DNA of 53,933 nucleotides from Chrysochromulina tobinii (lineage: Eukaryota), in contig JWZX01003251.1 of assembly GCA_001275005.1 (NCBI GenBank), forward strand, positions 1 through 53,933. The letters are read 5' to 3'. Below are positions 4,167-32,676 of the stretch, piece by piece. Both the position numbers and the translations under genes were made by a program. Under the pieces are notes generated by a model. It was not told where the DNA came from. It searched no databases and worked only from the letters and a program-made list of their open reading frames with translations. The stretch's first letter is position 1. The number at the start of each line of letters is the position of its first letter.

Positions 4167-4435
4167 CCCGTGCACGTCGTGGACCGAACATGGATCCGGG
4201 TTCCGGGACCAGTGTTTGCACAACAAGAGATTCGACCCGATGTGGTAGACAGCATGTGAGAGAACGATGACACGGAGTCATATGTATGTGCGTGATCATC
4301 AAGTTTTTGTTTCAACGAAACCCTTTTGCGTGAAAACGCTGTTCAGGTTGGTAAAATGGAAGCAGCGGCCCTCCGTCGGAGGAGCAGCGCAAGCGGCACG
4401 TGCTCGTGAAGAAGAAGAAGAAGATTGGCGACGTC

Positions 4436-6152
4436 ATGCGCGAGGACTGCCTGCCCGAGCTCGTCGCAGCTCAGACCGAGATGTGCCAGATGCGTGACGA
4501 GCTTGAGGCGTATCGAAGAGGCGACCCCACCTCGAGACGCGCCGAGGCGGCTGAGAGGGAGCTGCGTGATCTCCGGGCACAGCTCGCGGCGGAGATCGCG
4601 AGCTCGGCGGAGCACTTCGAGGCGAGATCGAAGCTCAGCGACGAGATCGCCGAGCTCAGACTCCAGCTCGAAGCCGAGAAGAAGCGCTCGGCGTCGCTGC
4701 CCTCGCCTGGCGCGAGTCCAGAGGAGGAGAGCGTCAAGCAGCTCAAGAAGAGCTTGAACGAGGCGAAGGAGGAGCTCGAAGCGGCGCATCGGGCGATTCG
4801 GGCCAAGGAGGTGATTGCCTCTGAGTGCCTGCCTGAGTGCCTCGCTGAGTGCATCCCTAATTGATTTCAGGAGAGCTCGGCTCAGAAGGAAGCGGGCGTC
4901 TCATGATTGCCACGGATTGCCATTGATTGCCACTGATTGCCACTGATGAGCGCTGATTGAGCAGGAGAGCTTGGCCCAGAAGAAGGAGGGCAGCCTCCAA
5001 GCGGCCAAGGAGCATGCCGAGCTCGTCGCCCAGCACGCTGCCCTCGTGACAAAGGGCGACGAGCTCATGCGGACCGTCCGGCTGCAACGGCTCGCCGCCA
5101 AGGCTCTCGGCATGCTGTACGTCCAACGGCTGAGCTCCCTCAAGAGGCAGCTGCGGAGGATGACCGAGCGCTCGCAGGCCGTTGAGGAGATGCTCGAGGG
5201 GGCGCCCGTCGAGCGCGCGCGCCTGGTCGACGAGAATGCCAAATTGAAGCGTGACGCGGCCAGCGCCCTCGCGGCGGTTGAGCCGCTACGAAAGTCGCTC
5301 ACGCATGCAAACTCCGAGATTCGTCAGCAGGCGATGCGTCTTCAGCAGCTCCACTCAACGGCGGAGCGGCTCGAGAGCACCCGGCGTGTCAACGCTGAGC
5401 TGCGGACTACGAATGAGGAATTGCTCGAGCACGTCAGATTCCTCACGAGATCGCTCTCAGAATCGCAATCTCGCGCGGACGTGATCAAGGTCCAGCTGCT
5501 CGATGTGCAGGGCAACCACGCACGTGTCCTCGCGCGGCGGGATACGGAGCGACGGGCCCTCGAGATCCAGGTGCGCTAATGACGCCTGATGACGCCTGAT
5601 GACGCCTGATGACGCCTGATGACGCCTGATGACGCCTGATGACGCCTGATGATCCAGGTGCGCTGATGGCCTCTAAGGATCTCGGATGGCCTTGGATGGC
5701 CTCGGATGGCCTCTGATCGTCCGCATGCCCTCGAGATCGCATCGAGATCGCAGCTGGCCGAGGTGGTTTCGCGTGTGCGCGAGCATGAGAAGGCATTCCT
5801 CGGGGAGCAGCCCCTATGGCTCCTCAAGGAAATTAAAGACGCTGCCCGCGAGGCACGCGAGCCCCGGCGCGAGCGCTCACCTCGGGCCGATCTCCCGCCG
5901 CCGCTCCCGCCTTCGACGGCAACTGCCCAGACGCCATCACCGCGATGGGGCATCGCTCTGCCGACGGTGCACGCTGCTGCGATGCCTGTGCGCCCTGGCC
6001 CCACAAGGGAGGCAGCGGGGACCCCGCGCTCACGGCGGCAACTCGCGCGCGTCAAGCCGCCGCCTATCGCGGGATCCATGCCGCCGCGACAGGCGGAGGC
6101 GGCGAACGAGGCCGAACTCGGCCCCGTTGACGAGTTGCCCACCCAAGCATGA
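4436..6152 (+). CDS. Coiled-coil hypothetical protein; exons 4436-4810, 4965-5570, 5754-6152 (possible micro-exon from 4871; start may be ATG 4356 if one G is missing)
   Basis: Three heptad-rich ORFs join in frame through phase-0 GT-AG introns 4811-4964 and 5571-5753. Confidence 0.75.
4811..4964 (+). other. Decamer-satellite intron with internal acceptor (4870) and diverged copy of the downstream exon start
   Basis: GAG|GTGATTGCCTCTGAGTGCC...TTTCAG GAGAGCTCGGCTCAGAAGGAAG...(TGATTGCCAC)n...GAGCAG|GAGAGCTTGGCCCAGAAGAAGG. Confidence 0.75.
5571..5753 (+). other. Decamer-satellite intron with a duplicated donor junction
   Basis: GATCCAG|GTGCGCT occurs at 5564-5577 and 5651-5664. GACGCCTGAT x7 spans 5581-5650. 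The acceptor CGCAG|CTG at 5753 restores the frame. Confidence 0.85.
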
Positions 6153-6545
6153 GGCCGATGACGAGTACTTCGATCTTCATAACAATTTTCTTTTTAGATT
6201 TTACTTCGTTGGGAGGAGTCAGACAGCGTAGGGGCGGGGAGAGAGAACAGTCGTATACGTTTTAGACTTTTAGTCCATGGGCAAAGAAGTCGTGCAGCAC
6301 AAACTTAACGGGTACAGTCCGTTCCCTTGAGTCCGCTCGCACTCTACATTGGGTAAATGAGCCCTACATAAAACAATGACTGCACGAAACGGCCGGCGAA
6401 AACCGTGTAAAGCCCCGCCCGGGGGCCGGCGGGATGTATAGCTAATCGGAGCGGAGATTCCAAACTTATTTAGGATTTTCCGCTGAATTTCCCGACTCCG
6501 CGCATAAACTCCGCGTCGCCCTTACGACGCCCCACCCATCCGTCA

Positions 6546-7202
6546 ATGAACATCGCGGTCTCCAGCCCGCCCAGTCCGGACTCTGTGCATAGTCCATTGC
6601 CGATATTTGCCGAACACACGCTTGCCTGCGCGCACGACGGCTGCGACAAGCGCTTCTTCAGGCGAAGTGATCTCAAGAAGCACGGGGGCTTGCACACGGG
6701 CACCAAGCTATTTGCTTGCGACCACGAGGGCTGTGGCAAGAGCTTCTCGTCCTCGAGCCACCTGACGACGCACAAGCGCACGCACACCAACGACCTGCCG
6801 TACACTTGCGACCACGAGGGTTGCGCCAAGCGCTTTTCGCAAGCGAGCAACCTCCGGTCGCACATCAAGCGCACACATATGGGTGAGAGGCTATTTGCCT
6901 GCGAGTTTGAAGGCTGTGGCATGCGTTTCATGGACTCAGCCCACCATGTGGCGCACAAACGTACGCACGCGGGTGAGAAGCCATATGCATGCGACTACGA
7001 GGGCTGTGGCAAGAGCTTCTCGCAACCGAGCAATCTCAAGTCGCACCAGTGCAGGCACACTGGTGAGAGGCTGTATGCCTGCGACATCGATGGCTGCGGC
7101 AAGAACTTCAGAACGTCGAGCGACCGAGCGAACCACAGGCGCACGGACACGGACACTAAATCGTATGGCCTCGACCACGACAGGTGCGCAAAGGGCATAT
7201 AG
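6546..7202 (+). CDS. C2H2 zinc-finger protein (5 intact Cx4C fingers, 6th lacks the last His, 7th degenerate)
   Basis: Repeated C-x4-C-x12-H-x3/4-H with TGE(K/R)PY-like linkers, e.g. CDHEGCGKSFSSSSHLTTHKRTH. Confidence 0.92.
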   Translation: MNIAVSSPPSPDSVHSPLPIFAEHTLACAHDGCDKRFFRRSDLKKHGGLHTGTKLFACDHEGCGKSFSSSSHLTTHKRTHTNDLPYTCDHEGCAKRFSQASNLRSHIKRTHMGERLFACEFEGCGMRFMDSAHHVAHKRTHAGEKPYACDYEGCGKSFSQPSNLKSHQCRHTGERLYACDIDGCGKNFRTSSDRANHRRTDTDTKSYGLDHDRCAKGI

Positions 7203-7275
7203 CGGCCCTGATAGCGGTATCCGCCCTGCAGGATATGGTCCCAATAATCTCGAAGGATCAAGCCGCTCGAGAGCT

Positions 7276-7454
7276 CCAGGAGTGGCGCCGGGTGTGCCAG
7301 GAGTGGCGCCGGGTGTGCCACAAGGCGAGCCAATAAGAGACGAGCTGAAGCTGGAGCTCCCTTGAGCTCCCTTCAGCCGTGGGACGTGAGTGCCTACCAT
7401 TCGAAGCACCCGAGATCCCCATCCCAGACGAGCTGAATCTGGAGCTCCCTTGAG
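7276..7454 (+). repeat. Intergenic direct repeats: 21-bp tandem x2 and a ~29-bp dispersed pair
   Basis: CCAGGAGTGGCGCCGGGTGTG x2 at 7276-7317; AGACGAGCTGAA(G/T)CTGGAGCTCCCTTGAG at ~7338 and ~7426. Confidence 0.85.
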
Positions 7455-7989
7455 TCTCGTGTTGGTCCAACCAACGAAAGGCCCGCGCTCCTGGTCCCGA
7501 CCTGTGTGCACTCTGCGTGTGCACCTGGCGGTGCACCTCAGTGCGTCAGCGTGCGCCTGCGTGGCCGACGCCCCTCCTCAACACCTGATCCTGCGTGGTG
7601 CGTGCCCAACCAGTACCAAAGGCTACCAGTACATAGATCCGTGATATGATCGGTACCGGTAGGCTACATGCTGTTGAGTCGGCCGCGGATTCGGTCGTCG
7701 CGCGGACCCGTGCGGTGCGGGTGCGTGCGTGCGTTGCGTTGGTGTGGGTTGGGTTGGTTGCGAGGTTCGTCTACCTGGTTCGTCTGTGATATCCGTGTGC
7801 CCGAGAGGTACCGTTGGTACCCGAGTGGGTAAAAGGCACCAGGGGGAGCCGGGACACACACGTGACACACGGGCGCACACGGGACACACGGGCGCACAGC
7901 ACCAATTGCACAGCACACGGATCACACAGTCGTTAAGCTTCACTTGAATTCATACATACTTGTACGAAGATTGACGAAGTTCCCGACCC

Positions 7990-9195
7990 ATGTTTGTCAC
8001 CGACAAGGCAGCCGGAGCATCGGCGCTGTCGGGCGTGCTCAATCTGTTGAATTCGATCATCGGAGCTGGTATACTCGCGTTGCCGTTTGCATTCAAGAGC
8101 GCCGGTCTGCTGGTTGGCATAGGGTACCAAATCGTCTTCGGCTTCATGACACTGTATGGCATCGTGCTGCTGCTCGAGTCGCTGAAGTTTGCGTCCGTCC
8201 GCTCATACGAAGACTTGGCACTGTGCGCGCTGGGAAGGGCGGGATGGTACGCCTACAATTTCAGCTCCATCTTCAGCGGCTATGGCTCGTGCACTGGCTA
8301 CTTGGTGATCATCGGCGACATCCTGCCGGGGCTCCTCCAGGAGCTCGGCTATGTGCTTTCGCGCGAGTCGCTCATGTGCGCCGTCAGCGTCGTGCTCATC
8401 TTCCCTCTGTGTGCGCTGCCTGAATTCTCCGCCCTCCAGTACGCGAGTGGCCTCGCCGTCGCCATCTACGTCTGCTTCACAGTTGCCATCGTGCAACTGT
8501 ACTTCCAAGGCAACGGCGGCAGTGAGCCTCTTGACCCTCCTCCCTCGATGTTTCGAGAGGACTTTGGCGCCTTCATCTCGGTCGCGCCGCTCTCCGCGTT
8601 CGCATACCAGTGCCTGACGACCCTCTTCCCGATTTATCAGGAGCTCGCGGTGGCCACGCCCGCCCGGATGACTCTCATCTCAGCGATCGCCCTTGGGACT
8701 GCTGGAGTGATCTATTCGAGTGTGGGTGCGGCCGCGTACTTGCACTTTGGCGAGGCGACCCAAGGCGACGTGCTGTTGAACCTCGAGTCGATCGGCAGCC
8801 CAACGATGCGCATCATGCGCTTCAGCTTTGGGATCTCAATCTGCTTCACATACCCTACCATGCAGTTCGCATGCAGACGGTCGCTTGACCAGCTGCTCTT
8901 CCATTCCAAAGAAGGCAACACCCCGTACCTTCGCCTGCTCGCACTGACGGTGCTCATCGTGAGCTCGACACTATGGCTGGCGCTCTACTCCCAGAAGGTC
9001 GAGGTCGTCTTCGGGTACGCGGGCGCGATTGCCTCGACCTCGCTCCTCTTCATCCTACCACCGTCGATCGCGCTCTCGCTCCATCCGCACAAGCCGTGGT
9101 ACAACTACCTTTTCCTTCTGGCAGGGCTGGCGTGCGGCATCCTAGGCTTGCTGCAGCAGCTCGCAGAAGACGTGCAGAGTGGGGGTGAAAGCTAG
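7990..9195 (+). CDS. Amino acid transporter, AAAP/Aa_trans (SLC38/AVT-like) family
   Basis: GVLNLLNSIIGAGILALPFAFKSAG, SYEDL, AFAYQC and GDVLLNL motifs; ~11 TM segments. Confidence 0.93.
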   Translation: MFVTDKAAGASALSGVLNLLNSIIGAGILALPFAFKSAGLLVGIGYQIVFGFMTLYGIVLLLESLKFASVRSYEDLALCALGRAGWYAYNFSSIFSGYGSCTGYLVIIGDILPGLLQELGYVLSRESLMCAVSVVLIFPLCALPEFSALQYASGLAVAIYVCFTVAIVQLYFQGNGGSEPLDPPPSMFREDFGAFISVAPLSAFAYQCLTTLFPIYQELAVATPARMTLISAIALGTAGVIYSSVGAAAYLHFGEATQGDVLLNLESIGSPTMRIMRFSFGISICFTYPTMQFACRRSLDQLLFHSKEGNTPYLRLLALTVLIVSSTLWLALYSQKVEVVFGYAGAIASTSLLFILPPSIALSLHPHKPWYNYLFLLAGLACGILGLLQQLAEDVQSGGES

Positions 9196-9400
9196 GTGGA
9201 AGTTAGGGGTAGTGCTAGAACGCAAAGCGCCGACGTGGGCACATTTATGCACACACATCAAGGATGATCGCCCTCGTCGCTTTCGCCCTCGCCCTCCGAG
9301 CTCCTCCCTCACGTCGCGAGCCCCGAGGCGCGAGGGGCCACTCTCGTCGGTACCAGTTTTCAGCATTAATGCACTCCACATGTCACCACCAGTGCGCGCG

Positions 9401-10414
9401 TCAAGCCTTGCCCATCGCCAGCATGGCCACGCCGCCATACTTGAGCGGCATCGGCGCACCGCCGCCCTTGGAGGAGGATACCTCAGCCACGCGATCGAGG
9501 AAGTTCGAACCGGATCCAACCTTTATAACACCGGAGCGCAGCTTCAGACCCGCGGGCGCCGTCCCGGGCGGATCTCCGAGCTCGCGCATCGCCTGGAGTG
9601 TGTGGGTGTCGCCAAACAGGACCGTGGCGCCCGTGCGCTCCAGCACTTCCACCGTCACCGTCGCGCGCTGTGCCGGCACGCCGCAGCCGCGAATGCCTCC
9701 GACGGCCGGTAACACCACGCTCGCGCCTGCGGTCAAAGCGCTCGAGACTGCGGACCCTATGCCAAATGCATGCATGAGCGTGATGGAGGCACACACGACG
9801 TCGGCACTCGTGAGGTGCAGCTTGGTCGCCGCCTGCCGGCCGAGCGTGATCGCCTCTCCGTGCGTCAGCGCGGAGCCGCCATACACTCCGAGCAGGCTAC
9901 CAGCGACGGCAACAGGTGAGCCCCCACGGGGAGGGCAATGCAAGAGGAGCTCGCGGAAATCGACGGTTGCTGAGGCTGGACGAGGGCCGGCGTCACCTGC
10001 CTCGAGGCTCACGATCGGCATCCGATGATGAGCAATCGCCTCCGTGTGCTCCAGCCAGGCCGCGGTTGCGTCCACGCAGATGATGCCGCAAACGTCGTAC
10101 TTCTCAAGCAGTGCATCGAGGGCGGCGGCGTCCTTGGGCGGCGTCATGATGGCTGCCCCGACGTGTGAAAGAGCAAGCTGCAGCAGAATATTTTCCGCCA
10201 CGTTGGGGACGTCGGAGAGAGCTACCGAGCCTGGCTTGTAGCCGATGTCTTCCAAGCCCGAAGCGAGGCAGCGCGCTTTGAGATCAAGTTCCTCGTACGT
10301 GTAAGACACGTTCTGCTGCGGCGCGATCAAGGCTGGCGCTCTCTGATTCGCGCTGATCACGAGGGACGCGAGGCTCGAGCCCGCGCTGGAGGCGAATCGC
10401 CTCGACAGGCGCAT
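9401..10414 (-). CDS. Truncated AMP-binding (acyl-CoA synthetase-like) protein with probable mitochondrial presequence
   Basis: ATG 10414 MRLSRRFASSAG; YTYEELDLKARCLASGLEDIGYKPG and VVCASITLMHAFGIG...AGASVVLP motifs. Lacks the canonical TSGTTGxPKG loop and the C-terminal domain. Confidence 0.8.
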   Translation of the reverse strand: MRLSRRFASSAGSSLASLVISANQRAPALIAPQQNVSYTYEELDLKARCLASGLEDIGYKPGSVALSDVPNVAENILLQLALSHVGAAIMTPPKDAAALDALLEKYDVCGIICVDATAAWLEHTEAIAHHRMPIVSLEAGDAGPRPASATVDFRELLLHCPPRGGSPVAVAGSLLGVYGGSALTHGEAITLGRQAATKLHLTSADVVCASITLMHAFGIGSAVSSALTAGASVVLPAVGGIRGCGVPAQRATVTVEVLERTGATVLFGDTHTLQAMRELGDPPGTAPAGLKLRSGVIKVGSGSNFLDRVAEVSSSKGGGAPMPLKYGGVAMLAMGKA

Positions 10415-10580
10415 TCGGAGGCGCGAGAGTCGAGAGGTGTGAACACACAAGTTCGTCAAAAACTTTCGATTACCCACCGGAACACCACGGGTCCTTCTTG
10501 TGTGTGTCCACACATGGTTCAATGCATAAATCGTGATCTCAGACTTACGTGCAAGCGCTACCCGCCGGGAAAAGACACTC

Positions 10581-11759
10581 TCACATGGGCGGTGGCAGCC
10601 CGTTGCCCTGCGCGATGGACGCCATGAAGTTGATCTTCTCGGCCTCCTTGGCGCACCACACCATGCCCTCGTCCGAATAAACCTCATCGCGGTCCATACA
10701 GAAGAGGATCTGGCCGTCGGCGCCGTCGTACGCCTCGACATCGGCCTTGAGCACGTACATGTCTGAGATCTTGCCCTTCTCCTTGATCTCGGACAGGATC
10801 ATCTCCTTGGGCACCAAAGCGTACGGGAAGTCCTTTGTGAGTGTGCTGAGCCCAAAGTACTCTTTGGACGTCGGGCCGAGGAAGACAGAACGTGCGGCGC
10901 CCTTGACACGGGGCGGTATGGGGCCCTCGGGCATGGGGGGGCGAGGCTTCTCCACCTTCGGCTCGGGCGGCTTCTCGCCGCGCGCGAGTGCCTCCGCTAC
11001 CAGCCGCTCCTGCTCCGCCTTGGCCGCCGCCTCGGCCGCCTCCCTCGCCTTCTCCGCCTCAATGCGCGCCGCCTCCTCCGCCGCCGCCTTCGCCTCGGCG
11101 GCGATGCGCTTCGCTTCTTCCTTCTTGGCTTTCCGTTTGGCCGCGCGCTCCTCCTTGAGCGCCAACAGCCGCGCCGCCTCCGCATCCGCCGCCGCCTTCA
11201 CCGCCGCCGCCTCCTCCGCAATGCGCGCCGCCTCGGCCGCTGCCTTGGCCGCCTTGATCTTGGCCGTGTAAGGATCGTCATCGAGGGCCTTGGACCAGGG
11301 CACGATGTCGGGCGTGACCACGCACGGCGACGTGTTCTTCCAGAACCCTTCCGGAGAGAAGTACACCACACCCTTGATCACCTGGCCCTCGTACTCCTGG
11401 GTGCACGACGTCTTGATCAACGGGTTGGCGGCGTACACCTCGGGCGCGGTTGGCCGGTTGCAGAACGGGTCGTGCGGCGGGTAGTAGTCGTAGAAGATGG
11501 CCGTGCCCACCTTGTCCAGCTTCTCCTCAGACGCGGCCGCGAGCTTGTTTGCTGGGTCGCGCGGGTCATCTTTGTAGAGCACGAGATTGTCGATCGGGTC
11601 GCCATGCCGTGCCTTGATGAAGGTCTCGAGCTCGGCGATCGACAAATACGGCAGCTGTACCTCGAGCTGGAAGTCCATCGTCTTCCACGGCACGCATTTG
11701 ATCTGCACCACCTTGACCTCAGGCGGCGGCGGTGGCGGCTCGGGTGGAGGCTTGGGCAT
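10581..11759 (-). CDS. Hypothetical protein: ubiquitin-like N-terminus, Ala/Glu/Lys helix, C-terminal region resembling the WDR63/IC140 N-terminal domain
   Basis: 392-aa ORF with strong GC3 bias. Domain resemblance is recalled by eye. Confidence 0.75.
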   Translation of the reverse strand: MPKPPPEPPPPPPEVKVVQIKCVPWKTMDFQLEVQLPYLSIAELETFIKARHGDPIDNLVLYKDDPRDPANKLAAASEEKLDKVGTAIFYDYYPPHDPFCNRPTAPEVYAANPLIKTSCTQEYEGQVIKGVVYFSPEGFWKNTSPCVVTPDIVPWSKALDDDPYTAKIKAAKAAAEAARIAEEAAAVKAAADAEAARLLALKEERAAKRKAKKEEAKRIAAEAKAAAEEAARIEAEKAREAAEAAAKAEQERLVAEALARGEKPPEPKVEKPRPPMPEGPIPPRVKGAARSVFLGPTSKEYFGLSTLTKDFPYALVPKEMILSEIKEKGKISDMYVLKADVEAYDGADGQILFCMDRDEVYSDEGMVWCAKEAEKINFMASIAQGNGLPPPM

Positions 11760-12219
11760 TTCAGCAACGACGAGCGTCGTAAGGAGCGCCCGATAAGGCG
11801 CTCCGAGAACCCCGTCAGACGGACCCGAGGCGTCTGATCACACGTCAGGACCCCCCTGTTACAGTATGATGATCTCTGTTCCGTGAAAATGTCGGGCGCC
11901 GCGCGCGCCGCGCGCGGAGCGGCGGGGGCGGTAGCACAGTCCGCATGTTGGCATGAGTCCTTATGAGTCCGGGCACCGGAGCGCAAGCAGCCGATAAGGC
12001 CATAACCGGCGCCCATTTCGGTCCATTTCGGCGCTTTCGCGGCGAGACTCCAATTATTCTCCAGTTACCCAGAGCACCTCTCCGTACCGGACCCGAGGCG
12101 TCACACTTCAGCCCTACTTCAGCCCCACCCTTGCACCCACCCCTATCATGAAGATGTTCTCTATCTTCCGTGTACATGCATGTGACGAGGTCGGGAGCTC
12201 TCTGGACTCGTCTCCTGTG

Positions 12220-14515
12220 CTACGACTCGCCGGTTTTGACTAGCACGCACCCGACCTCAGCGAGCGCGCGCGCCACGTCGAGTCGCTGAGCGTCCGAGTC
12301 GCAGGGAAGCTTGGCGACGCTCACAAACTTGGGGTACGACGCGAGCACGTGCTCGAGCGCGGGCGCCGCCTCGATGGCAAAATCAATCTTATCGGGCTCA
12401 TCCCTCTCGCGGTAGATGCGCGTGTTCTGGGCGCTGTGGTACAGGGCGGCGACCTCGAGGCCGTCCGCGCCGCCTCCCTCGACAGCTAGGCGCGCGACGC
12501 GTCGGGTGGTGAGCCGAATCTTGCTCGCGAGGGTCACCTGATTGCGGCAATCAGCGGCAATCAGATGCAATCAGATGCAATCAGAGGCAATCAGGTGAGC
12601 CGAATCTTGCTCGCGAGGGTCACCTGATTGCGGCAATCAGCGGCAATCAGATGCAATCAGAGGCAATCAGGTGAGCCGAATCTTGCTCGCGAGGGTCACC
12701 TGATTGCGGCATTCAGCGGCAATCAGCGGCAATCAGCGGCAATCAGCGGCAATCAGGTGAGCCGGATCTTGCTCGCGAGAGGCACCTCCTCCGGCGAAGC
12801 CGGCAGGCGCGACGCGTCGGCGGGCGCGTGTGCGATCGGTAGGCGCTCATGAATGTAACGCTGGCAGCAGAACATATCGGCCATACCATCGAGCGGCATG
12901 TGCTCGACAAGGTCGTGCAGCATTGCACGCAGGCGCGCCTGAATCGCCGCTCGGCGCAGCGCGTGCTCCGTCACCTCCGGCGCCGCGCCTGCAAGGGGCA
13001 GCCCAAAGGCGACTCATCAGTGGCAATCAATGGCCATCAGTGGCCATCAGTGGCCATCAGTGGCCATCAGTGGCCATCATTGGCAATTACCTGCAGGGGG
13101 CAGCCCAAAGGCGACTCATCAGTGGCAATCAGTGGCCATCAGAGGCAATCAATGGCCATCAGTGGCCATCAGTGGCCATCAGTGGCCATCAGTGGCCATC
13201 AGTGGCCATTACCTGCAGGGGGCAGCCCAAAGGCGACTCTCGCACGCTCGAGCTCCGCTGGGTCGAAAGGCAGGTGGCCATTCGCGGCGTCCTCGGCGGC
13301 GGTGGCGGCGGCGTGGGCAGCAGCGGCGGCGGCGTCGCCCTCCTCGTCGTTGGCATGCAGCAGCCCAATCCGATCGAAGAGGTCAGGTGGAAGGGTTTCG
13401 CGCCAACTCGGCTGGGCCACCGTCAGGGATTCCATGGCACCGAAGACGCCGAACTCAAGGAGATCCCTCCACGTGTGCTGACGACCGAGTGAGGCGGTGA
13501 CGTGGAGCGACGGGTGCGTCTGCGCGGCCGCCTGGTGCACGAAGCCGCGTGGAAGGTACAGCAGGTCGCCGGGACGCAAGGTCACCTGCCCGATCAGGCG
13601 GCCGAGCTCGTCGGGGAGCAGATTGGGGCTCGAGAAGCGCGGCAGCGCCTCATCGGAGGTGCGGGGGGCGTAGACACGCCACTCCTTGGTGCCCTCGAGC
13701 TGCAGCACGAGCGCGTCGATGTCGTCCCAGTGCGGTGCGAACCCCTGGCTGCCCGCCGGCGTGAGGTACGCATTCGCGCCCGCCATACACCCGAAGAGCT
13801 CCTCAAGCTGAGAGAGCATCCTCCATAGAGGGTCCGACCGACGCTGGGGCCACGAGAAGCGGATGGAGCAGCCCTCGGCGTAGCGCTTCCACACCTCCTC
13901 GGGCGTCGCGATCCCTTCGCCGTTGTGCGTCGTGCGCACGCCCCCTTCATACCGCGCAGCGTCCACCTCGTCCGTCCAGCGCATCCCTCCCTCACGGATT
14001 TGGCGCTCCATCTCGGCGCGCGAGAACCAGCCGTCGTAGTAGGTGCGATCGGTGCGCGCCACGTGCAGCGGCCGTCGGCCGTAGATCTCCTTTAGGAACG
14101 TCTCCGCACTCACCGGCCCGACGAGCCACGCGAGAAACTTTAGAGCCTTGTCGGAACGGTCGGGCATCGAGGCGATCTCCGGGCCCGTCTGGCCAATGAA
14201 GGCGCGGTCGTCGGTGACTGTCTCGAGCATCTCGGAGACTTCTGGCGCGGTCTCGATACCCCAGGCACGATCGGTGGAGGACGGCTCCTTATCCTGCTGC
14301 AGCTGCTGATGTGCCTTCTTCTTCTTGCCCTTGGGAGCAGCGGCGGCGGCGGCATCGCCGGATGGTGAGGACGTCGTCGTCACGGCGGACGGTGCCGCCA
14401 CTAGCCCTGGGGGTGGCGCCTCCTCATAGTCTTCGTCCCGCGAGCGCTTGAGCTCCTTCTTTGGCTTCTTTGGCTTCGGCGCCGGGGCGGGCAAGATCGG
14501 CGATGGCTTCGGCAT
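12220..14515 (-). CDS. RIOX1: Ribosomal oxygenase 1 / NO66 (JmjC, Cupin_4); exons 14515-13213, 12988-12786, 12537-12220
   Basis: GANAYLTPAGSQGFAPHWDDIDALVLQLEGTKEWRVY, LRPGDLLYLPRGFVHQA, SLHVT and YIHERLP motifs, plus a C-terminal ALEHVLASYPKFVSVAKLP. Introns are phase 1 and phase 0 and keep the frame. Confidence 0.9.
12538..12785 (-). other. 248-nt intron made of three units (86, 76, 86 nt), each a 30-nt copy of the downstream exon plus decamer satellite ending in CAG
   Basis: GGTGAGCCGAATCTTGCTCGCGAGGGTCAC (+ strand) at 12508 (exon), 12594, 12670 and 12756 (27/30 match), separated by (GGCAATCAGC)n-type repeats. Confidence 0.88.
12989..13212 (-). other. 224-nt intron made of two units (122, 102 nt), each GTAAT plus decamer satellite plus a 27-nt copy of the upstream exon end
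   Basis: CTGCAGGGGGCAGCCCAAAGGCGACTC (+ strand) at 13213 (exon), 13091 and 12989 (1 mismatch), separated by (TGGCCATCAG)n. Confidence 0.9.
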
Positions 14516-14660
14516 CGTCGCGACCACGTGGATGCTGTGAGTGTGAACGTTAACACGACAGACGCGACTACCGGGGCGACGGCACTGTTACTGCCTGCTC
14601 AGAATATACACACCTTACATGAGTGTGAAGAAAAGTTTTTCGTCCTTCCACCAACACATT

Positions 14661-19100: not shown

Positions 19101-22100
19101 TTGAGGCGCTGGAAGGCGAGCTTGCTCGCTAGGGACGGGTCGAGCATCGCCGCGTTGTCCTTCTCGATGAGCGGATCGTACCGATCCCATGGCAACGTCG
19201 CCGCCCGCGGCAGCAGCGGCGGCTCGCCGTCATTCTCGACACCGAAACGTTCCGAGCCCGACGAGCTTGGCTTCTTGGACGACGACGGGCGCGCCGCCGG
19301 CGGCTTCTTCGGTGCGCTCATCGGCTGCGGCGCCGGACGGTACTGGCTGAACCCGGGCTTCCACAGGGGGTAACGGCTTTTCGTCTCAATCCAGAGCTCA
19401 AGGATCTCGTCCTTTGTCAGGTCCCGTGGCCAGATCCACGCCTGTGCGAGCAGCCCCGCCCCCTTGCTCGACGTGACGAGCCGGCGGATCTGCACACTCG
19501 CGTCCATCTCGGTGCTCACATACGTGGCGGGGCGCTTTGGCTCGGGCAAAAGAGCGCGTGCCGGCTGTGGCGCCCCCTTAGTGTCGATCGAATGGTACCC
19601 GATCCAGAACTGCGATTCTCGGCCGTCGTTGGTGACCACAAGCAGGCACCAGTTGTCGCCGGCGAGGCGTGGGTCGAAGTCAGTCGCGCAGAAGACGTTG
19701 TCGACGAGTGCGCCGAGTTGGTTGTTGCGCACGAGCGCGGGCATGTTGCGAGTCTCTCCGAAGAAAAGGAGTTGGTCCGAGAGAGATTCAATCGGCCGCC
19801 ATTTGATCCAGTATGCGAACGTGTAGCAGAGCGTGTCCTTAGTGGGCATGTACGCGAGCGCAGTCGACATGAGCCGCATCGTCGTCCCGCCATTGCCGGC
19901 AGCGTGCATCCCCGCATCATTCCCTGATGAGAGCGTCGTCGGTTGCTGATTCAAGTGAGAGGCGACGGGGGCGGCATCGGCTCTTTGTTTGCTCGCTTTC
20001 TCACTTGTATCGGCCGAGTCGGCAGGCACATTTACCGGCCTGGGCGCGCGTACCCCCGCCGTCGTTCCCACGACGTCGCGCAACGCCAAGCGGCTCCACC
20101 GGTTCGACTTGGCGTTGATCGGCTTGGCGGGATCCTCGCCTGCAGCTGCCTCGGCCGCCTCTGGAACCGCCATAGAGTCAAGCGACGCCTTGCGGCTCCG
20201 GCTCGGCTCGGCTTGATCCTCGCCTGCAACTGCATATCTGTAAAGGGCGGGGGTGCTCATGAGACTTGCCTCGACCGCCTCCGGGACCGGAATCGACGGT
20301 GCCGTGGGTTGCAGTGGCCGCGCTCCTGTTGGCTGCGGTTGACTGCCGGATTCCATATCGGGCGTCTTCGAACATGAGGAGGAGGCGTTCGACCCCTCGC
20401 GTGATGCGTTCGCGTTCGGCGATGGCGTGCGACGGCTCCTCGCGTTCGGCGGCTCATCGGGTGGGCTGGGCGGCGGCGTGGGCTCACTCCCACTTGTTGA
20501 TGTGGGCCATCCAGGCACGACTGGTACCGGGCCACGTCCCGCCACCACGTCCCGCCAGCCGGGCTCGAAGAGCGACGGCGGCTCACGCACGCCCGACTGG
20601 CTGAGCGGGTTGTCCTCTGCCATGCTCGCCATGCTCGGCTCTATCGACTCGCCATCTTCGTAGGGTGATGTCCACTGCGTCTTGGTACTGCCGTCCTCCG
20701 TGCAGTAGTAGTAAGTTCGCCCATCCGGGGCAGTCGCCTCAGACCATTGCGGAGAGAGCCCGTACTTGCTGCGAGACGATGAGGATGCCGTGGCACGCAA
20801 CGCACACCCAGCAGATCCACCGCGTGTAGAGCAAGCCCCGACTCCAGCGCCAGCATCATTAGTTGTGTCGTCCTCTCGAGGGCTCGGGAGCGTGCTTTCC
20901 ATCTTGCTCCCCTTTTTCCGAATCCCGAGACTCTCGGGCGGTCGGATGGCGATGCGCAACATGACGACGCCCACTGGCACCTCCACTCTGGAGATGTCCT
21001 CCTCCTCCTCCTCCTCCTTAGTGTCCTCGAGCTCCTCGTCAATGGGCCCCACTTTACTCAGGCTCATACGTCTCAGACTGGCCCAGCCACTGCCAGTGGC
21101 ACTGGGTGAGAGGCTCACGACGCTCCCGACGCTCGAGCGTGCGAGCTGTGGAGGAGCCTTGTGGGGTGGAGGCAGCGCCTTGGGCGCAGGTGAGCCCTTG
21201 GGCGCCATCTCCTCAAAGCCCATCAAGTCAAATGCCATGTCCATCTCGCACGTGCCGTTATTGTTGGGCTTGCCGTCGCGCAGCAACTCCTTGAGGCTGA
21301 TCTTGGTGATGCCGATGAACCCTTTGAGTTGGGCCGTGCCCTTACGGTCCGTGATGTACCACTTGCGTCCTTGCTTGTTGGCCACGATCAGCTTGATGGT
21401 CACGTCGGAGCTCGATGGGTCGACATCTTCGAGGATCTGCGTGAGCTCGAGAGTCTCGGCCTCGCTGTTTTCGGTGCGGTACCGGCGCTCGATTTGATCG
21501 TGAGCACGCCCCTTGAAAGTGCTGAAGCCCTTCCTGAGCGGGTACGGCTCCGAAAGGTGCTCGGGAGGGTTGTCGCCAGGGATCATGCTCTCGACGAGAA
21601 CGAGCGCATCGCCGGCTGCAAACTCGGGGCCCATGGCGGCGAGGATCTTCAAGCCTATCTCGTTGAGGCGCGAGCTCTTAATCTCAAGGCGCACCTCACC
21701 TCGCTCGAGCTCCCGCTCCTTTTCGTTCTCGGCGCGCCGAATGTCGTGGATCAGCATCAGGTTCGTCATTCGGAGCCAGCTGCGCAGATTCTTTGGGCGT
21801 GTCGTCTTCACGAGATGCTTCGAACGCGCCTGGAGCATCGACTGCATCGTCGGGTTGTTTTCCTTGAGCGTGATCCATTGGTCCTTCATACCCTGGTACC
21901 ACTCATCGTAGCTCTGCCGCATGTTGCCCACGTATTGCGTCTGCTGCGGCAGCACGCCCCCCGGCGTGACCGCCTGCTTCACGTTCAGGTCCCAGTAAAA
22001 CACACCGTCGTCGTCCTTGATGGCCACCTGCTTGCCCAGGGGCTGATGCGTGACGGCGTCCATGATCCACTCGTTGTTGACGCGGTCCATCTTACCGATG

Positions 22101-31485: not shown

Positions 31486-32676
31486 TCACGCGAAAGGGTT
31501 TTGCGACGACGCTGGGGCAGCTGGAGGCCTGGCAAAGAGATCGTCCAACAAACTTGTGCTAAGCGACGGCAGCGCTCCTGGGATCGTGGGTGCACGAGGC
31601 TCCAAGGCTGGCTGTTGCGGCGGCCGCTTTGCGAACAGATCGTCCATAGTCTTCTTGAGCTCGACGTCCACTTCTGATACAATCCGTGCGCTGTGGCCCA
31701 AGGCGCCACGTGCTTCGGTTCGGGCGAATAGGCCACCAAACGAGTCATCGAGGCTCGGCGCCGATACTCGCACGGAAGAGGCAGTACTCTGCACCTTAGC
31801 GTGGCTCGTATTTCGTGCTGGATGGTTGACGCGCGTGAGACGAAGCAGCGCGTCTAGCCGCGTCGGTGGGCGCGGCCGATGCTCCGTAACCTCAGTCGCA
31901 GCCCCCTGTGCCCCTGCTTCCGGCTTCGGCGCCCTGGGCGCCTTGGCAAGGAGCCGTCGGAGCCGTCCAATCTCCGCTCTCGCTGCCTCCAGCGTGTTCA
32001 CGTCTGACGCGTCCAGTGGGCCATGGGAAACGTCAGCCACTTCTGAGCCGGAGGCCAGAGGCGACCACGCCTGCGGAGCAGATGGCCGCTTTGCAAAAAG
32101 ATCGTCCAAAGTCTGCTTGAGCTCGACGTCCACTTCTGATACATTCCGTGCGCTGTGGCCCAAGGCGCCACGTGCTTCGGCTCGGGCGAATAGGCCACCA
32201 AACGCGTCATCGAGGCTCGGCGCCGGTGTTTCAACAATAGCATCCGACGCTGCCAATGCGGCAGCAGTGCCTTCTTCAAGCTTGGCCTTGACTGCCACCT
32301 TCTTGCTCATTCGAGTTGCCACTTCATTTGCCAGGCTGCCCACGCCTTTCCAAAAGCTGATCCCATCTGAATATGCATCTGTGGCTGCTCGTACGCCTTC
32401 CCGCTCGTTCCACAGTCGCAGATGTTCGCAATCTGGAAAGGTCAGGCGATTATCGAGGGTGCAGTTCTCCGGGTGCAGGACGCCAATCCAGCCCTCGAAG
32501 GTTGCTTCTCTTCCTATCCTCTTGATGTACCAATCGAGGTGGTCGGAAATGAGACGTCTGGCCTGTTCATTGACCAGCTCCATCTCTGCCAGAATTTCGA
32601 GGTCATCCGCTGTCATCTCTGGCTTCGTGAGCGGAGGAGGAGTGGTGGGAGAGGCAAGACCAGCCGCGATATGCAT
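31486..32676 (-). CDS. Hypothetical protein with a HL..Y...TFEGWI..LHPEN domain, an internal 47-aa duplication and a terminal NPF
   Basis: 396-aa ORF from ATG 32676, ending SSQNPFA*. Confidence 0.75.
   Translation of the reverse strand: MHIAAGLASPTTPPPLTKPEMTADDLEILAEMELVNEQARRLISDHLDWYIKRIGREATFEGWIGVLHPENCTLDNRLTFPDCEHLRLWNEREGVRAATDAYSDGISFWKGVGSLANEVATRMSKKVAVKAKLEEGTAAALAASDAIVETPAPSLDDAFGGLFARAEARGALGHSARNVSEVDVELKQTLDDLFAKRPSAPQAWSPLASGSEVADVSHGPLDASDVNTLEAARAEIGRLRRLLAKAPRAPKPEAGAQGAATEVTEHRPRPPTRLDALLRLTRVNHPARNTSHAKVQSTASSVRVSAPSLDDSFGGLFARTEARGALGHSARIVSEVDVELKKTMDDLFAKRPPQQPALEPRAPTIPGALPSLSTSLLDDLFARPPAAPASSQNPFA
31622..32225 (-). repeat. 142-bp intragenic duplication (31622-31763 and 32084-32225)
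   Basis: Both copies encode APSLDD(A/S)FGGLFAR(A/T)EARGALGHSARxVSEVDVELKxTxDDLFAKRP. Confidence 0.93.

Follow-up and report, generated by a model that had tools for sequence, protein, structure and literature searches.

How does a gene come by an intron whose acceptor is a copy of the exon that lies upstream of it? The question is raised by the first intron of a gene in a 53,933 bp contig of Chrysochromulina tobinii (JWZX01003251.1; this whole stretch of DNA is called the window below). The minus-strand open frame that begins at 14515 codes for a NO66/RIOX1-family protein with a JmjC domain. This protein clusters with a Chrysochromulina parva gene model (P0133), which places the gene in a freshwater haptophyte, and is 607 amino acids long once both introns are removed (Table 1); retention of either of the two units of intron 1 leads to a stop at 438 of the 607 amino acids. 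The NO66 stretch is present in 17 of 21 sequencing runs (X18–X21 have next to none of its words), and the runs compared with it, as assembled contigs, were DNA run X1 and RNA runs X12–X16.

Table 1. Features of the window, in window coordinates, with the strand on which each is read
Feature	Positions	Strand	Evidence or remark
Fifth array: 50-nt intron-like stretch, GTGAGT...C-rich TAG, three decamer units	about 410-460	minus	sequence, outside RNA coverage
Decamer intron, 154 nt; inner diverged copy (4871-4897, 5/27 differences) of downstream exon start	4811..4964	plus	joint in 4/4 RNA runs
Decamer intron, 183 nt; upstream exon-end copy near acceptor (5727-5738), inner donor-junction copy (5651-5664)	5571..5753	plus	joint in 3/4 RNA runs
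NO66/RIOX1 exon 3 coding part, C-terminal winged helix	12220..12537	minus	Pfam RIOX1_C_WH, E 3.6e-18
NO66 intron 2, 248 nt	12538..12785	minus	X13 RNA contig joint 12534/12783
Y0, outer copy of exon-3 start, 3/30 differences; gives intron 2 donor	12756..12785	minus	strain variants exist
NO66 exon 2, 203 nt	12786..12988	minus	
NO66 intron 1, 224 nt, GT..AG	12989..13212	minus	joint 12987/13212 in RNA contig, skips 224, CT..AC on plus strand (cut +1)
X2, outer copy of exon end, 1 mismatch; gives pyrimidine stretch and used AG	12989..13015	minus	
Unit B filler; its 3′-most branch-point-like YTRAY has the A at 13017, 29 nt before the 3′ end	13016..13090	minus	motif match only
X1, inner exact copy of exon end, then second donor-like GTAATT	13091..13117	minus	DNA run X1 contig end at 13097
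Unit A filler: nine 10-bp units + CTGAT; donor within first unit	13118..13212	minus	
X0, 27-nt exon end, source of intron copies	13213..13239	minus	
NO66/RIOX1 exon 1 coding part, JmjC domain	13213..14515	minus	open frame; Pfam JmjC_2, E 1e-31; X12 RNA contig over 13212-14502, 0 other letters

Intron 1 is composed of two units of 122 and 102 nt, each consisting of 10-bp repeat filler (arrays of the unit CTGATGGCCA and its variants) followed by a 27-nt copy of the end of exon 1. As an earlier note on this DNA had claimed, the exon end (13239–13213, minus strand) is copied at the end of both units, at 13117–13091 with no mismatches and at 13015–12989 with one (C to T at 12994), and the acceptor of intron 1 is supplied by the exon copy. 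The chance expectation for a 27-mer with at most one mismatch inside 250 nt is about 6e-12, none of 500 shuffled flanks matches the score of this copy, and no further copies of the exon end lie elsewhere in the window at up to 7 mismatches. Both copies precede a G, and the duplication may include the first base of the donor GT; counted in this way the duplication straddles AG|G and measures 28 nt, whereas the T of the donor derives from the filler and not from duplicated exon. The proposal of the earlier note that the insert supplies GTAAT holds insofar as GTAAT is the first, altered 10-bp unit, but its G may be of exon origin. The inner joint CTGCAG|GTAATT that the note placed at 13091/13090 is present in the sequence, each unit is a GT-AG intron in its own right, and the motif predicts that stepwise removal through the AG|GT of this joint is possible. 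Inverted repeats were not seen at the filler ends of intron 1. RNA fold scores of introns 1 and 2 (z of −4.4 and −3.8, respectively) are expected from quasi-palindromic tandem units and are therefore not taken as a sign of function.

The intron is spliced exactly in a 1496-nt contig of RNA run X12, in which 12783–12987 is joined to 13212–14502 with no other letters, 224 nt are skipped and the exon allele is carried. This is one contig in one of the five RNA runs (X12–X16); the other four are without the joint here, unspliced pieces occur in the RNA runs, and several contigs extend into the NO66 introns. No unbroken match between the exon end and outer copy X2 exceeds 21 letters, and a 31-mer graph should therefore not have been able to create the X12 joint from DNA, which argues against graph collapse. 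Intron 1 has GT..AG ends, is removed from RNA and restores the frame, like a spliceosomal (U2-type) intron. Use of the AG that opens each exon-end copy would add eight residues in frame, and the C. parva model P0133 uses that AG twice, which gives it two 8-residue micro-exons; such use of the inner AG was not seen in the one spliced contig (X12), and the micro-exons are likely an annotation error caused by this exon-copy type of intron. Annotators should be warned that copies of this kind can be made into micro-exons that are lacking from the RNA contig.

The two-unit form of intron 1 might be an artefact of assembling a short repeat. A second assembly (L001) matches intron 1 letter for letter, which argues for the two units with the proviso that it may share data with the window, and another locus (L002) has a single 102-nt unit here. 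Intron 2 likewise varies, with three units (four copies of the exon start) in the window and six (seven copies) in L001, a difference that may itself be one of assembly, both being assemblies of short contigs. On the other hand, DNA run X1 has contig ends at 13024, 13097 and 13210, which is where 31-mer assembly should break off if both variants of the exon-end copy adjoin the filler, and the exon-end peptide occurs three times in P0133; both observations support two exon-end copies in intron 1. An artefact is thus very improbable, and with one unit alone the acceptor would still be an exon copy. Elsewhere in the window, 19842–21215 and the part beyond 22613 are unmatched by L001 and L002, 21216–22613 is matched at only 92%, and 31654–32225 contains a direct repeat with 462-nt spacing.

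The second intron follows after an exon of 203 nt, the spacing given by the earlier note, and is of opposite polarity as the note held, its first bases being copied from the beginning of the downstream exon. This opening copy of 30 nt is followed by two further ones inside the intron, and the three units of 86, 76 and 86 nt each consist of an exon-start copy and 10-bp filler that ends in CAATCAG. The AG that precedes the intron 2 copy is also duplicated; AG and the 30-nt exon start together make a duplication of 32 nt, which straddles AG|G. A 12-nt inverted repeat extends across the two filler junctions, the filler ends being inverted over 8 nt. A contig of RNA run X13, from a strain that differs by about 1%, connects 12534 with 12783 and so lacks the 248 nt of intron 2. 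This joint is weaker evidence than that of intron 1, because in a strain whose outer copy is identical to the exon the two would have 32 letters in common, and the graph could join them. Exon 2 is partly uncovered in X13, and the gap is taken as no evidence; 21 letters at the 5′ end of the X13 intron-2 contig do not fit exon 2 (window 12854 onward) and are possibly a strain-specific insert.

Both NO66 introns seem, from alignment, to be absent from sister haptophytes. The sister protein P0002 (64% identical, three members, contigs of 3.9–4.2 kb; SH-aLRT 100 for its sister position in a quick tree) and P0008 (on a 38-kb contig) read through both intron sites at the protein level, and at the DNA level a locus of the haptophyte clade (L003) is without intron. 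Intron 1 sits in a poorly conserved linker that is alignable only to P0002. In the alignment of NO66 orthologues that the earlier note called for, neither other haptophytes nor distant algae have an intron at this position. Among 15 of the 84 members of the NO66 cluster that were viewed, the raw frames of 14 end just inside intron 1, reading GNCH (nine), GNGH (four) or GKCH (one), and the other is the spliced model. Similarly, of nine exon-2 frames viewed, eight run into intron 2 and end there, behind a copy translated as VTL (as in the exon), VTF, VPL or VPLSR. These frame stops indicate that both introns are fixed in the strains viewed while their interiors are drifting. Neither an empty (intron-less) allele nor a presence/absence polymorphism was found among the 15, so the birth of the introns has not been caught in the act; a search with exon 3 for full-length near-identical proteins, as expected of empty alleles, found none, which is weak evidence. 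P0142 is a chimeric contig and does not count as such a protein. In three other haptophyte-like NO66 proteins (P0019, P0011 and P0007) the raw frames enter repetitive stretches at other positions, that of P0019 reading decamer-like, which suggests repeat-filled introns elsewhere in the group.

We favor, with a probability of a little under 0.6, the reading that intron 1 arose by duplication of about 28 bases of exon across AG|G with the 10-base repeat between the copies, probably in the course of DNA break repair. Duplication with filler would yield exon-D-filler-D-exon, where D is the duplicated stretch, and a cut at equal offset in both copies would restore the mRNA. In the polarity of intron 1, D would end at AG, and G plus the T of the filler would make GT; in that of intron 2, D would hold AG|GT near its start; the mRNA would be unchanged in either case. 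Selection would keep exactly spliceable inserts of either polarity, so that one process could serve both. The "mirror-image" design proposed by the earlier note is borne out in that two polarities are seen, but two designs would not be needed, since one process and selection should suffice. Its further idea that a target duplication can fall on either side of a proto-splice site fares similarly: both polarities exist, but there is no common mobile insert or duplication of set length. In subsequent steps the repeat unit itself would bring YTRAY branch-point-like words on the sense strand, and later unequal crossing-over or slippage would duplicate the block of exon end, donor and filler, thereby creating the inner joint; the extra units would be tolerated, since splicing takes place at the outermost sites, either at once or in steps. 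A later tandem duplication of this kind is the best explanation of the two-unit form. In intron 1 the outer copy differs from the exon at one and the inner copy at none of 27 positions, and in intron 2 the outer copy differs at three and the two inner ones at none of 30. A diverged copy at the working site and inner copies identical to the exon are in line with birth of the intron first and tandem duplication afterwards, and the strain variants suggest that the outer copy of intron 2 began as an exact copy and then drifted.

The window contains five decamer arrays. All four RNA-supported introns in 4200–14600 carry a copy of a flanking exon, for which shuffles were as good in 0, 0, 1 and 0 of 500 cases, so that one of the four is marginal (1/500); all four also carry an inner copy of a splice junction and use the outermost sites. 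YTRAY words number 15, 13, 6 and 10 on the sense strand of these introns and 0, 3, 0 and 0 on the other strand. Duplications measure about 28, 32 and 15 nt, with 3 nt at the ends of the fourth intron, and the four fillers, each with its own unit, length and ends, have only a loose 10-bp unit in common. The middle exon of the gene that contains introns 4811–4964 and 5571–5753 is without a Pfam match. In the fifth array (about 460–410, minus strand), which lies just past the end of a plus-strand frame, no exon copy was found by eye.

In intron 4811–4964 the donor is G plus repeat, the exon copy is inner only, and 3 nt are duplicated at the ends. Its inner acceptor, which has no GT after it, is bypassed, so stepwise removal is not needed in that intron; and the inner-only copy means that exon copies also arise after an intron exists. 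This is exactly the look expected if a repeat-filled intron had entered at AG|G with a 2–3-nt duplication, and boundary-spanning tandem duplications and an exact deletion between two AG|G had then made an exon copy the acceptor. We consider this order of events rather unlikely for NO66. The differing unit number of intron 2 (three in the window, six in L001) agrees with it, as do the minisatellites called "mirages" in amphioxus, which, in the available text of PMC3087553, duplicate either boundary and vary in length with splicing intact. It demands, however, an extra exact deletion for each copy that lies at or next to a working site, namely in introns 1, 2 and 5571–5753 and in two introns of a second gene discussed below (L033 301–411 and 518–969), and divergence is greatest in the outer copies, as would be so if they were the oldest part.

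A mobile element of the introner type with an unusually long target-site duplication is an improbable source. Introners do take either splice site from their duplication, a Chrysochromulina family among them (available portions of PMC9860276 and bioRxiv 2020.10.14.339549); the filler of intron 2 has 8-nt inverted ends, and terminal inverted repeats are a feature of some introner families, though not of all; and the repeat is abundant: the 2.5-kb NO66 stretch, mainly its arrays, is matched by 2344 contigs from DNA run X1, a figure that is not a copy number. The 10-bp unit is common in the DNA of that culture. But the introner duplications given in the accessible parts of the literature measure 3–9 nt, against about 15, 28 and 32 nt within this single window; the fillers of the four introns are not alike in unit, length or ends, with no inverted ends in intron 1; and a cryptophyte-like gene has unrelated units.

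This gene lies in two overlapping metagenome loci, L033 and L034, whose NO66 groups with that of the cryptophyte Baffinella frigidus (SH-aLRT 99 in a quick tree whose rows are only 19–33% filled). In about 800 coding bases (L033:299–969 and L034:222–1728) homology draws at least six introns, the removal of which leaves open frames; they are thus putative introns, defined by homology and open frames. Their fillers have other units, of about 11, 12, 20 and 22 bp, unrelated to the Chrysochromulina unit, and exon copies are present in five of the six, among them a perfect 49-nt repeat across AG|GT (L033 299–347 and 410–458). One is a many-unit GC-AG intron, and one has inverted ends and 93-nt tandem units. 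A further locus, L004, covers four of these sites and is intronless there. Exon duplications in the window hence measure about 15–32 nt, and one in the cryptophyte-like gene 49 nt, with variable satellite arrays as fillers; in all, the sample of this intron family is ten introns in three genes. In L034 510–961 and 1083–1283 a copy of the upstream exon end is joined directly to a copy of the downstream exon start, with altered letters at the junction, so the source can only be intron-less DNA or spliced RNA. Tandem duplication at the boundaries of an intron already in place would not easily produce such joined copies. Together with the 12-nt inverted repeat of intron 2 and inverted filler runs, they lead us to infer template-switching synthesis at a break. 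Such inserts occur in end-joining repair. As a control, 121 intron-like gaps were taken from 41 of 75 NO66 loci (many strains of few species): a 16-mer exon copy is found in five of the six gaps of L001, L033 and L034 and in none of 115 in the 38 other loci. A direct repeat above background at the junctions, as expected of intron gain by break repair, is thus present (0 of 500 shuffles and 0 of 115 control gaps).

The repeat itself was also looked for outside algae. Five scans of viral contigs gave 0, 0, 10, 0 and 0 loci, and the ten were rejected as carriers, being two-unit chance matches in unrelated DNA. A scan of prokaryotes gave four loci. One of them, L076, was set aside as a related repeat; it is bacterial intergenic DNA. 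Its genome (G001, a Verrucomicrobia MAG; L076–L100) contains a 13-letter word resembling the algal unit at 21 scattered places, compared with one in its control, at least one of the 21 being in a short intergenic tandem, and the likeness is unrelated to the algal repeat.

NO66 intron 1 is real and lineage-restricted, and is a variation on known routes of intron gain, not an introner. It is likely that the exon-copy introns in both algae mark an overlooked, transposon-free route to new introns. A much wider claim is tentative: that satellite-filled exon duplication could be the main and ongoing, transposon-free source of introns in haptophytes and, independently, in cryptophytes, exon breaks being healed by template-switching synthesis that copies 15–50 nt of flanking exon and lineage-specific 10–22-bp repeats pre-loaded with donor and branch-point words, with most introns self-made and missed because introner screens discard satellites.

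A literature search in which coverage of the key papers was incomplete gave no account of repeat-filled, exon-copying introns in haptophytes or cryptophytes. Read et al. in 2013 reportedly found 10–11-bp repeats enriched in Emiliania introns, and the supplements to that work may bear on novelty. The parts available of PMC4580454, PMC8379373, PMC2784329 and PMC12220804 hold nothing on such introns. Recruitment of splice sites from either side of a duplication is already known; the accessible portions of the literature contain no description of long duplication with satellite filler in two algal lineages.

Introners are described, in the accessible text of PMC9860276, bioRxiv 10.1101/2020.10.14.339549 and PMC11282704, from Micromonas, Aureococcus, Symbiodinium, Polarella and a Chrysochromulina sp.; their duplications are 3–9 nt, with a 4-bp family in the Chrysochromulina sp. 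The introns described here resemble them, as far as these excerpts go, in that one splice site is taken from duplicated host sequence, in either polarity, and the mRNA is unchanged; unlike them, the introns of the window have no 3–9-nt duplication of set length and no end-to-end similarity among the four fillers compared. A 2025 introner survey, by the available part of its text, excluded families in which the resemblance was due to simple repeats or satellites (PMC12130899), so introns like those of NO66 would have been filtered out. The amphioxus mirages (PMC3087553, available portions) are alike in having tandem units that extend across an exon-intron border, either border being involved, and that leave splicing intact; mirages are unstable in length, as intron 2 may be, and tandem units of this sort would account for the inner joint of intron 1. 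They differ in that mirages lie at old conserved introns with the original splice site working, whereas the NO66 intron is lineage-restricted and the exon copy works.

Routes of intron gain by duplication and by break repair have been reviewed (PMC3443670; PMC3488318, available portions of both), and natural cases of either are few in the table of the former. Break-repair gains, by the same excerpts, share direct repeats at the junctions around inserted DNA and a lineage-restricted position; the published repeats are short and the fillers mitochondrial or of unknown source, whereas here the repeats are 15–49 nt, the filler is a genome-wide minisatellite, and the event recurs in neighbouring genes. 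In the Rogers model an exon segment that contains AGGT undergoes tandem genomic duplication and so gives rise to an intron (Yenerall and Zhou 2012, PMC3443670, available text). Both NO66 introns agree with this model, as far as that text describes it, in that splice sites and exact removal come from a duplicated piece of exon that spans AG|G(T), and intron 2 has both sites inside the duplication. They depart from it in that they are mostly satellite filler between the copies, which in intron 1 completes the donor, and the 28-nt duplication of intron 1 would alone be too short for an intron. Newly gained introns mostly have no traceable source, whereas each intron here keeps a record of its copied exon, its filler and the order of its later duplications. 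If this build is genome-wide, Chrysochromulina and cryptophyte genomes should contain thousands of dated cases that would put the proto-splice-site, duplication and break-repair models to the test.
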